IMG/VR virus record: IMGVR_UViG_2648501392_000005
Coordinates: 1-4,616 of that record
Strand: one strand, 5' to 3'
Source: a virus
Lineage: Duplodnaviria > Heunggongvirae > Uroviricota > Caudoviricetes
Length of the DNA: 4,616 bases
Shown: positions 1 to 3,000 of the stretch, piece after piece
Position numbering within the stretch: position 1 is the stretch's first letter
Layout: the number at the start of each line of letters is the position of its first letter
Made by a program: the position numbers

Positions 1-3000
1 AACGCTGGCAGGGAAGCTGGCTGAACGTGTCGGCATGGATTCTGTCGACCCACAGGAACTGATCACCACTCTTCGCCAGACGGCATTTAAAGGTGATGCC
101 AGCGATGCGCAGTTCATCGCATTGCTGATCGTCGCCAACCAGTACGGCCTTAATCCGTGGACGAAAGAAATTTACGCCTTCCCTGATAAGCAGAACGGCA
201 TTGTTCCGGTGGTGGGCGTTGATGGCTGGTCCCGCATCATCAATGAAAACCAGCAGTTTGATGGCATGGACTTTGAGCAGGACAATGAATCCTGTACATG
301 CCGGATTTACCGCAAGGACCGTAATCATCCGATCTGCGTTACCGAATGGATGGATGAATGCCGCCGCGAACCATTCAAAACCCGCGAAGGCAGAGAAATC
401 ACCGGACCGTGGCAGTCGCATCCCAAACGGATGTTACGGCATAAAGCCATGATTCAGTGTGCCCGTCTGGCCTTCGGATTTGCTGGTATCTATGACAAGG
501 ATGAAGCCGAGCGCATTGTCGAAAATACTGCATACACTGCAGAACGCCAGCCGGAACGCGACATCTCTCCGGTTAACGATGAAACCATGCAGGAGATTAA
601 CACTCTGCTGATCGCCCTGGATAAAACATGGGATGACGACTTATTGCCGCTCTGTTCCCAGATATTTCGCCGCGACATTCGCGCATCGTCAGAACTGACA
701 CAGGCCGAAGCAGTGAAAGCTCTTGGATTCCTGAAACAGAAAGCCACTGAGCAGAAGGTGGCAGCATGACACCGGACATTATCCTGCAGCGTACCGGGAT
801 CGACGTGAGAGCTGTCGAACAGGGGGATGATGCATGGCACAAATTACGGCTCGGCGTCATCACCGCTTCAGAAGTTCACAACGTGATAGCAAAGCCCCGA
901 TCAGGAAAGAAGTGGCCTGACATGAAAATATCCTACTTCCACACCCTGCTGGCTGAGGTTTGCACCGGTGTGGCTCCGGAAGTTAACGCTAAAGCGCTGG
1001 CCTGGGGAAAACAGTACGAGAACGACGCCAGAACCCTGTTTGAGTTCACTTCCGGCGTAAATGTTACTGAATCCCCGATCATCTATCGCGACGAAAGTAT
1101 GCGCACCGCCTGCTCTCCCGATGGTTTATGCAGTGACGGCAATGGCCTTGAGCTGAAATGCCCGTTTACCTCCCGGGATTTCATGAAGTTCCGGCTCGGT
1201 GGTTTCGAGGCCATAAAGTCGGCTTACATGGCCCAGGTGCAGTACAGCATGTGGGTGACGCGAAAAGATGCCTGGTACTTTGCCAACTATGACCCGCGTA
1301 TGAAGCGTGAAGGCCTGCATTATGTCGTGGTTGAGCGGGATGAAAAGTACATGGCGAGTTTTGACGAGATGGTGCCGGAGTTCATCGAAAAAATGGACGA
1401 GGCACTGGCTGAAATTGGTTTTGCATTTGGGGAGCAATGGCAATGAAGCATCCTCACGATAATATCCGGGTAGGCACGATCACTTTCGTCTACTCCGTTA
1501 CAAAGCGAGGCTGGGTATTTCCCGGCCTTTCTGTTATCCGAAATCCCCTGAAAGCACAGCGGCTGGCTGAGGAGATAAATAATAAACGAGGGGCTGTATG
1601 CACAAAGCATCTCCTGTTGAGTTAAGAACGAGCATTGAGATGGCACATAGCCTTGCTCAAATTGGAGTCAGGTTTGTGCCAATACCAGTAGAAACAGACG
1701 AAGAATTTCATACGTTAGCCGCATCCCTTTCACAAAAGCTGGAAATGATGGTGGCGAAAGCAGAAGCAGATGAGAGAGACCAGGTATGACAACCACTGAA
1801 TGCATTCTTCTGGCAGCGGGCTTTATATTCTGTGTGCTTATGCTTGCCGACATGGGACTTGTTCAATGACACCTCAGCAGGAAAACGCCCTTCGCAGCAT
1901 TGCCCGTCAGGCTAATTCTGAAATCAAAAAAGCCAGACAGCAGTTTCCGGATAAAAACGTCGATGACATTTGCCGTAGCGTACTAAAGAAGCACCGCGAA
2001 ACGGTAACGCTGATGGGATTCACACCGACTCACTTAAGTCTGGCAATCGGTATGTTAAACGGCGTCTTTAAGGAACGGTGAACATGAAAAGCAAAATCAT
2101 CAGGGAGCTACAGGCTCCTTTTTTATTATTCGCATTCACCCTCAAGCGTATTAACCAACAATTCAGGGATTAATGAAAGATGGCAGATATCATTGATTCA
2201 GCATCAGAAATTGAAGAATTACAGCGCAATACAGCAATAAAAATGCGTCGCCTGAACTACCAGACTGTATCCGCAACTCATTGTTGTGAGTGTGGCGATC
2301 CGATAGATGAACGAAGATGCCTGGCAGTTCAGGGTTGTCGGACTTGTGCAAGTTGCCAGGAGGATCTGGAGCTTATCAGTAAACAGAGAGGTTCGAAGTG
2401 AGCGAAATTAATTATCAGGCACTGCGTGAAAAGGCAGAAAAAGCAACTAAAGGAAGCTACATCGTAGGGCATACATCTGTTAATCGGCATGGCAATTTAA
2501 CAGGAGTTTTTGTTTGTCAAAAATGGAAAGGAGAACCCGGTGGCGTGATTGCAGAATGTCACGTTAACTGCCTGGTTGAAACAGATGCTCAGGCTTATGC
2601 AAACGCTGAATTCATAGCAGAGGCTAACCCGGCTACCGTGCTGGAACTGCTGGATGAACGGAAAAGAAACCAGCAATACATCAAACGCCGCGACCAGGAG
2701 AACGAGGAGATTGCGCTTACGGTTGGGAAGCTGCGTGTTGAGCTTGAAGCAGCAGAGAACAACCTTATTGATAGTGAATGCCATGTTGCTGAACTGGAAG
2801 AAGCTCTACGCGATAAGCAGGCGTTACTTGAAGCCTCAGAAAAGCGCAACGCAAAATTACAAAGCGAGAATGCATACATCCGCAACCGGTACAAAGAACT
2901 GGACCTGTTAATCGGGAAAAACATTCTGGTCATGCAGGCTGCCATTATCGAATGGCAGGCAACTGGCGACGCTAAGAGCGGACTAGCATGGATTTATAAC

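Follow-up and report, generated by a model that had tools for sequence, protein, structure and literature searches.

A conserved 27-codon open reading frame nested between orf63 and orf71 of Escherichia lambdoid phages is a probable small membrane peptide gene

Enterobacteria encode a class of small single-pass inner-membrane proteins, described by Hemm, Storz and colleagues, to which KdpF, CydX and AcrZ belong. These proteins are shorter than 50 amino acids (aa), consist mostly of one hydrophobic helix, are encoded within operons from a start codon of their own with a modest Shine-Dalgarno (SD) sequence, are missed by size cut-offs and reveal their conservation through synonymous variation. 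The same traits are seen in a 27-codon open reading frame (ORF), hereafter the micro-ORF, which lies between orf63 and the homologue of lambda orf61 in a 4,616-nucleotide (nt) stretch of DNA from a virus of the Caudoviricetes (positions 1 to 4,616 of IMG/VR record IMGVR_UViG_2648501392_000005; the whole stretch is referred to as the window). The window is the early-left recombination and exo-xis region of an Escherichia coli O55:H7 lambdoid prophage, and the operon in question is the early leftward (pL) exo-xis operon of Escherichia lambdoid phages. Our reading, to which we assign a probability of about 0.7, is that the micro-ORF is a genuine gene whose translation is coupled to that of its neighbours, that it encodes a small inner-membrane peptide and that it makes up a fixed module with the downstream gene orf71. 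As judged from sequence, its product would be a new, uncharacterised member of the above class, although it differs from KdpF, CydX and AcrZ in showing no sequence similarity to them, in being phage-borne and in lacking basic flanking residues; moreover, no partner membrane complex is encoded next to it, the neighbouring Orf71 being a predicted soluble three-helix protein.

Three other systems invite comparison. The type I toxins of the Hok, Ldr, TisB, ShoB and DinQ class are similar to the micro-ORF peptide in size and hydrophobicity, whereas the micro-ORF has no detected antisense RNA or promoter, no structured leader and no basic residues, and is placed in a phage early operon. The Orf61 proteins of lambda and the Shiga toxin (Stx) phages (PHROG 303 / 26061) are annotated on the same DNA in a different frame, but upstream of position 1866 purifying selection acts on the micro-ORF frame alone. 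Finally, the ATGA-coupled gene pairs bet/exo and exo/orf60a of the window have 4-nt overlaps identical in form to those of the micro-ORF, which differs from them in being a whole 27-codon gene sandwiched between two such overlaps.

The micro-ORF begins with the ATG at 1786 and ends with the TGA stop codon at 1867-1869. Its extent, its product and both ATGA overlaps are exactly as given in an earlier note on this DNA, made from the sequence alone. The features on which the analysis turns are:

1786-1869, plus strand: micro-ORF, 27 codons and a stop, product MTTTECILLAAGFIFCVLMLADMGLVQ
1786-1789, plus strand: first ATGA overlap, formed by the orf63 TGA stop (1787-1789) and the micro-ORF start; kept in 199 of 199 copies
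1866-1869, plus strand: second ATGA overlap, formed by the micro-ORF stop and the orf71 start; GTGA in some haplotypes
1771-1779, plus strand: SD-like purine-rich run TGAGAGAGA upstream of the micro-ORF start
1853-1856, plus strand: within the micro-ORF and 9 nt ahead of the orf71 start codon, a weak SD-like GGGA, which reads GGGG in some haplotypes
1801-1863, plus strand: predicted single transmembrane (TM) helix, residues 6-26, CILLAAGFIFCVLMLADMGLV, by Kyte-Doolittle hydropathy
1866-2081, plus strand: orf71, intact homologue of lambda orf61 (RefSeq WP_000188870.1)
1800-1865, plus strand: 22-codon N-terminal extension of a 93-aa ORF, judged non-coding in the orf71 frame

The overlap at the stop codon is ATGA or GTGA in all copies save rare variants, and its ATG at 1866 is also an in-frame ATG of the 93-aa ORF (1800-2081). 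In some haplotypes (e.g. L010 and L455) CAGTGA replaces CAATGA at 1864-1868, a change that is silent for Gln27 and gives orf71 a GTG instead of an ATG start.

The nesting of the micro-ORF had been called unlikely to arise by chance. This does not hold for the open frame alone, since the 78 inner bases stay open in 37% of dinucleotide shuffles, but it holds for an open frame whose Kyte-Doolittle mean over 19 residues is also 2.3 or higher, found in only 0.2% of them. Apart from the micro-ORF, no stretch of TM grade occurs in any frame of the transcribed strand; the antisense strand has a similar one by chance. The most hydrophobic 19 residues of the window (Kyte-Doolittle mean of 2.64) are encoded on the minus strand at 2650-2709, within an ORF at 2497-2784 (minus strand) antisense to ea22, and are most likely a by-product of the codon composition of the ea22 coiled coil. 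Because hydrophobic stretches do arise by chance, hydrophobicity alone is weak evidence, and comparative data are decisive.

Three sets of copies were compiled: (i) 80 IMG/VR loci located through the Orf71 protein, (ii) 199 IMG/VR copies retrieved by a degenerate pattern that lies within the micro-ORF, which were used for context and integrity only, and (iii) 115 metagenome loci anchored on orf71 codons 7-13, i.e. outside the micro-ORF, and hence unbiased with respect to it. Nucleotide diversity at non-synonymous (piN) and synonymous (piS) sites was calculated by the Nei-Gojobori method from 68 orf71-anchored metagenome copies that are colinear from orf63 to orf71, with the following results:

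micro-ORF frame: piS 0.078, piN 0.006, piN/piS 0.07
frame of the 93-aa ORF (frame 0; 1803-1865): piN/piS 1.14
third sense frame: piN/piS 4.35
orf71 (control): piN/piS 0.06
orf63 (control): piN/piS 0.22

The amino acid sequence of the micro-ORF is thus under purifying selection, and the 93-aa frame upstream of 1866 is not; piS in the micro-ORF is similar to that of the neighbouring genes. Among 145 copies, the variants seen at least four times comprise 7 synonymous and 2 non-synonymous changes in the micro-ORF frame, all 7 of the former at codon position 3, with only 23.5% of sites being synonymous (binomial P = 9e-4). Rare variants in the same copies are 2 synonymous and 8 non-synonymous, as expected if purifying selection keeps changes of the latter kind rare. 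Read in the 93-aa frame, the common variants are non-synonymous in 4 of 4 cases and radical (G>R, H>Y, T>A and F>S).

The reading frame is also rarely broken. The region is present in 90 of the unbiased metagenome loci, of which 86 have the micro-ORF intact at 27 aa, 2 have a 26-aa form (Q27stop, with the orf71 ATG kept) and 2 are disrupted, one of these on a contig with 1.3x coverage. In the 199 IMG/VR copies its length is 27 aa, with the exception of one Q27stop, and it is 27 aa in both of the upstream contexts described below. The substitution pattern, the intactness, the conserved overlaps, the ribosome binding site (RBS) and the hydropathy together support the view that the micro-ORF is a genuine protein-coding gene. 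Conservation with synonymous variation in related phages, proposed in the earlier note as a check, was therefore observed (piN/piS of 0.07, against 1.14 in the 93-aa frame). The same note had named copies with a broken micro-ORF frame and a preserved 93-aa frame as the finding that would speak against a gene, and the reverse was found: the micro-ORF frame is kept, and the upstream part of the 93-aa frame is radically substituted, with an unstable start.

These data bear directly on the identity of the downstream gene. The micro-ORF had been described as flanked by orf63 and orf61, which is correct for orf63; a downstream gene of 61 aa is not present here, its homologue being of 71 aa (from ATG 1866) or 93 aa (from ATG 1800). 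RefSeq gives a 71-aa protein from ATG 1866 (WP_000188870.1), and a 93-aa coding sequence from ATG 1800 is annotated in numerous phage records, those of BP-4795, 06-3462, ev058, Perceval and 933W among them. Were the 93-aa ORF the true gene, the micro-ORF would be nothing but an untranslated alternative frame. The 93-aa form has been used in published Orf61 work, and PHROG 303 spans all of its 93 residues, as expected of a family built from such annotations. It is nevertheless very improbable that this is the correct interpretation, given the piN/piS of 1.14 and the radical common substitutions over 1803-1865, and because the codon preceding ATG 1800 is TGA here and GGA in lambda, so that the start of this ORF is unstable. 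Moreover, its SD is poor and badly spaced (-3.8 kcal/mol at 13 nt, a useless distance), RefSeq places the start at ATG 1866, and a natural variant (L008, see below) has everything upstream of orf71 codon 7 replaced. AlphaFold models Orf71 as a confident three-helix bundle (predicted local distance difference test, pLDDT, of 87), whereas residues 1-20 of the extension have a pLDDT of 40-53; residues 1-23 of Phi24B Orf61 were likewise left out of a published model comparison (PMC8614690). The 22 N-terminal residues of the 93-aa form are therefore judged not to be part of the protein.

In lambda, two differences change the annotation. A run of seven A residues (A7; J02459, ~30866-30872), shared by lambda-type records nearly identical to it, replaces the A6 present in the window (1926-1931) and in ~97% of the sampled copies, and the equivalent of 1797-1799 is GGA instead of the TGA of the window. 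In consequence, the annotated lambda orf61 starts farther upstream, crosses the micro-ORF in another frame and ends early; the 61-aa product is a frameshifted, truncated chimera. Truncation of the lambda type was found in only 5 of the 199 sampled IMG/VR copies. The micro-ORF itself is intact in lambda (30925-31008, complement) with one conservative change, L8F, and is entirely covered, in a different frame, by the annotated orf61 (30839-31024), while the 93-aa annotation of the Stx phages overlaps 66 of its 84 bases.

Several other properties of Orf71 were recorded. No significant fold match was found for it in the PDB (Foldseek, best E = 2). The name 'cell division protein ZapA', carried by some RefSeq records, was rejected, there being no ZapA match in Pfam or NCBIfam and no fold match, and a homeodomain identity was unsupported by hidden Markov models or Foldseek. 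The C-terminal motif GFTPTHLSLAIGMLNG (2016-2063, residues ~51-66) weakly resembles an ankyrin-repeat core, with PDB sequence matches at E values from 3e-4 to ~1, none of which has a significant stretch. The most divergent Orf71 homologues (51-52% identity) come from contigs rich in frameshifts, which are probably error-prone assemblies, and are uninformative; a third divergent homologue is interrupted by an insertion sequence (IS) element. In one E. coli genome (L214, ~800-2000) an IS3-family element is located within orf71 and the upstream micro-ORF is intact.

The genomic surroundings of the micro-ORF delimit the module. The downstream gene is orf71 in all 199 pattern-anchored copies, while the upstream gene is orf63 in 174 and a phage N6-adenine methyltransferase gene in 25. 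In the latter context, found in DLP12-like prophages, the micro-ORF ATG is precisely where homology to the window sets in. The methyltransferase stop codon takes part in the ATGA overlap just as that of orf63 does, and a strong SD, GGGAGG, lies upstream. The boundary of the module is at the micro-ORF ATG, and the ORF and both of its overlaps exist in either context. Mosaic joints of lambdoid phages are characteristically placed at gene boundaries, and a joint at the micro-ORF ATG thus indicates that 1786, and not 1800 or 1866, is a gene start. The joint was located at 1501-1504 in both L006 and L007, DLP12-like prophages with that of E. coli B among them. In a third arrangement (L008, 1476-1500) an Orf71 homologue with a different N-terminus (MTIEHNNALRS...) and an SD of its own occurs without the micro-ORF, directly after an unrelated gene for a 250-aa hypothetical protein, and all sequence upstream of orf71 codon 7 is replaced.

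The strength of the translation signals was expressed as the duplex energy with the 3' end of 16S rRNA. The SD of the micro-ORF ATG (-5.6 kcal/mol, 6-nt spacing) lies among the values obtained for the other operon genes, and the GGGAGG of the methyltransferase context reaches -10.3 kcal/mol. The orf71 ATG at 1866 has an SD of -3.9 to -4.7 kcal/mol at 7-nt spacing, and the start is GTG in several haplotypes; the annotators of phage 21 put the RBS at the GGGA site inside the micro-ORF. The weak SD and the GTG starts fit a reliance of orf71 on termination-reinitiation coupling. We infer that the micro-ORF is translated and coupled, and that its product is inserted into the membrane, in the following manner. 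Ribosomes that finish orf63 (or the methyltransferase gene in DLP12-like prophages) would terminate at the TGA of the first ATGA and either re-initiate at the overlapping ATG or be joined by fresh initiation from the adjacent purine-rich SD. The resulting 27-residue product, nearly all of which is one hydrophobic helix, would most likely enter the inner membrane, and termination at the second ATGA would hand the ribosomes over to the weak-SD ATG or GTG start of orf71. The peptide and Orf71 would thus be made as a fixed two-gene module.

The same signals could be explained by an ORF that acts as a relay only, whose translation carries ribosomes from orf63 to orf71 and whose peptide is functionless and degraded. 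This is consistent with the ATGA overlaps at both ends, with the weak SD of orf71 and its GTG starts, and with the better SD (GAGG, -5.6 kcal/mol) that orf71 possesses where the micro-ORF is missing. For a relay, however, it would be enough that the start and stop were conserved and that no stop codon arose in between, yet the peptide is conserved like the products of its neighbours and non-synonymous variants stay rare. Nor is there RNA structure at the orf71 start for translation to open, this region being less structured than shuffles (z = +2.3). We regard a mere relay as unlikely. A fusion of the peptide to Orf71 through -1 frameshifting was considered as well, and no canonical slippery heptamer was seen on inspection.

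The peptide, as the product of the proposed gene, has the layout MTTTE-CILLAAGFIFCVLML-ADMGLVQ. Its grand average of hydropathy (GRAVY) is 1.66, its best 19-residue Kyte-Doolittle mean is 2.3-2.4 and its 15-residue core reaches 2.9; the usual TM threshold for a 19-residue mean is ~1.6. By hydropathy, the hydrophobic stretch is long enough to span a bilayer, so that the suggested check for a TM helix yielded one TM-grade segment. The most divergent lineage carries A21S and D22G. No lipobox was noticed on inspection, and no family match was obtained in Pfam, PHROG, NCBIfam or PADLOC; PADLOC also indicated no defence family at the locus. The idea of a translationally coupled small membrane peptide, put forward in the earlier note, consequently gains support from selection, intactness, the overlaps in two contexts, the RBS and hydropathy.

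That note further listed membrane-targeting toxins and holin-like factors among the conceivable roles. A type I-like membrane-damaging toxin, or a holin- or antiholin-like factor of lysis timing, would be in keeping with the small size and strong hydrophobicity of the peptide. Deletion of the whole exo-xis region of Phi24B, which lowers the induction of degP and htpX on infection by 3.0 and 2.4 log2 units, respectively, compared with the wild type (PMC10789677), also fits envelope stress caused by the region and is compatible with a membrane-inserting product; Orf73, which is homologous to TraR and reprogrammes host transcription (PMC9239242), explains the effect just as well. The features that define a holin are not found: the micro-ORF is situated outside the lysis cassette (it follows bet and exo, with orf63 and the orf61 homologue on either side), its product is far shorter than known holins, and the C-terminus, ADMGLVQ, has no basic residue and no charged tail. 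A type I toxin is unsupported too, considering that the peptide has no basic residues, that no antisense promoter above chance and no small RNA family were detected, and that the ORF is set in an operon with overlapping neighbours rather than in a stand-alone, tightly repressed locus. The single promoter-like site on the minus strand (2154-2125) is no more than is found in shuffles. A toxin is, in addition, hard to reconcile with the fact that over half of the complete E. coli genomes carry the region. Roles of this kind are, in our estimation, decidedly unlikely.

Several points weigh against the micro-ORF being a gene for a functional membrane peptide. The copies are all at least ~89% identical and confined to Escherichia lambdoid phages, so few independent mutations (9 common variants) underlie the selection signal. 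The peptide is devoid of Lys and Arg, its only charges being Glu5 and Asp22; without basic residues and with Asp22 inside the hydrophobic stretch, it would be an unusual membrane anchor with no topology cue. Since Orf71 occurs without the micro-ORF (L008), the peptide is dispensable for Orf71 expression and is an optional partner. The region is non-essential for plaque formation by lambda (PMC10695390), and ribosome profiling of lambda, as related in PMC8614690, added only ORFs of 7 and 31 aa here; because the micro-ORF overlaps the annotated orf61 in lambda, any footprints on it would be credited to orf61. Lastly, an antisense 61-aa ORF (1668-1853) shares the wobble positions of the micro-ORF and has a piN/piS of 0.15 over the shared part.

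This antisense ORF, or an RNA or DNA element, might account for the conservation, and the interval might otherwise be a non-coding spacer, its 76 nt being unannotated in current RefSeq. Variation at every third base is, however, the signature of a protein and not of an RNA or DNA site, the region is less structured than shuffles, and Rfam has no match at the micro-ORF site. The antisense ORF was rejected as the source of the signal, its length and start being unconserved and constraint over orf63 being absent: it varies in length (40, 44, 48, 61, 76 and >88 aa), has lost its ATG in 9 copies, changes in sequence with the upstream context and shows a piN/piS of 0.74 over the part overlapping orf63. 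Furthermore, the common synonymous variants at 1857 and 1866 fall outside it. All explanations of this type are extremely improbable.

Searches beyond the close copies gave a uniform picture. A tblastn search with the peptide against 50,697 phage records (E up to 10) returned only copies of at least 80% identity, nearly all of them from Escherichia phages, and no distant homologues; matches to plasmids were the same sequence, and a 14-mer anchor scan of genome contigs gave only chance matches in unrelated bacteria. The ORF had been called hidden, which is true of current RefSeq, where the 76 nt are left blank, and of the phage records inspected, in none of which it is annotated. It is not true of some older GenBank assemblies of E. 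coli (e.g. KIG30274.1) or of UniRef (A0A0A2SGE8_ECOLX), where an identical 27-aa 'hypothetical protein' is listed; the commonest peptide variant is present on 981 contigs. The literature search found no paper that mentions the micro-ORF or contains the peptide sequence, and the peptide is absent from the supplements of the small-gene RIBOseq paper on O157:H7 Sakai.

Published work on the region concerns the genes orf60a, orf63, orf61, orf73 and ea22 and the 7- and 31-aa ORFs from ribosome profiling (PMC8614690). The orf61 deletion mutants of lambda and Phi24B had the annotated orf61 sequence replaced (PMC6213356), and lambda Orf61 has been described as truncated and modelled as unstructured (PMC8614690). 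The phenotypes ascribed to orf61 are an altered choice between lysis and lysogeny, altered prophage induction and, in Phi24B, altered adsorption. Lambda Orf61 is frameshifted, yet its deletion has effects, and an intact micro-ORF lies in both of the deleted regions, which makes it a candidate for part of the phenotype. Our guess is that, at an early stage of infection or induction, the peptide modulates a function of the host inner membrane, and that it contributes to the 'orf61' phenotypes. The stronger proposition, that the 27-residue peptide and not Orf61 causes at least part of them through a target in the host inner membrane, possibly together with Orf71 and early after infection or induction, seems rather doubtful.

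Few viruses have been studied as thoroughly as lambda and the Shiga-toxin phages, and prophage induction, and with it toxin release, is known to be influenced by the exo-xis region. The interest of the micro-ORF comes mainly from this location and from the correction that it forces on 'orf61'. If the proposed gene is real, the standard lambda gene map is short of one conserved gene, and the orf61 annotation would be wrong both in lambda (a frameshifted chimera) and in the Stx phages (22 spurious N-terminal residues), an error that would carry over to the protein constructs employed in structural studies and two-hybrid assays. The deletion and frameshift mutants of orf61 would also hit the micro-ORF, and their phenotypes would need re-attribution. 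The peptide would, in addition, be a very widespread small protein, as 3267 of the 5426 complete E. coli genomes have a match to the region around the micro-ORF, at roughly 4,400 places altogether.

With respect to the source of the window, positions 1700-2100 match the E. coli O55:H7 DEC5E chromosome with 100% identity, positions 1400-2200 are 99.5% identical to phage JLK-2012, and the identity of the stretch to lambda is ~97%. The other genes of the region are arranged as follows:

35-769: bet
766-1446: exo
1443-1625: orf60a / DUF1317
1598-1789, plus strand: orf63 / DUF1382 (Pfam PF07131, E 3e-31; RefSeq and phage records also assign it to the DUF1382 family)
1800-2081 (93 aa) or 1866-2081 (71 aa, orf71), plus strand: lambda orf61 homologue
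2078-2173: 31-aa ORF
2180-2401: orf73 (TraR/DksA)
2398-3168: ea22

From bet to the 31-aa ORF, the successive junctions are overlaps of 4, 4, 28, 4, 4 and 4 nt, the fourth and fifth of which are those of the micro-ORF. When the micro-ORF is left out, a single 76-nt gap appears, the sole gap in this series of genes. The 31-aa ORF starts with a GTGA that overlaps the orf71 stop codon and contains a terminator-like hairpin followed by a T run (2102-2120), a feature predicted in publications on exo-xis as the 't2' terminator. The ORF is as long as 'orf2313', which PMC8614690 credits to lambda ribosome profiling, and some records give 29 aa. At the 3' end of the window, ~4522-4616 corresponds to one end of an IS1203/IS629-like element of the IS3 family that is multicopy in E. 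coli genomes, and an ORF of 175 aa (3997-4524), whose TGA stop codon is inside the IS end, was probably truncated by the insertion.

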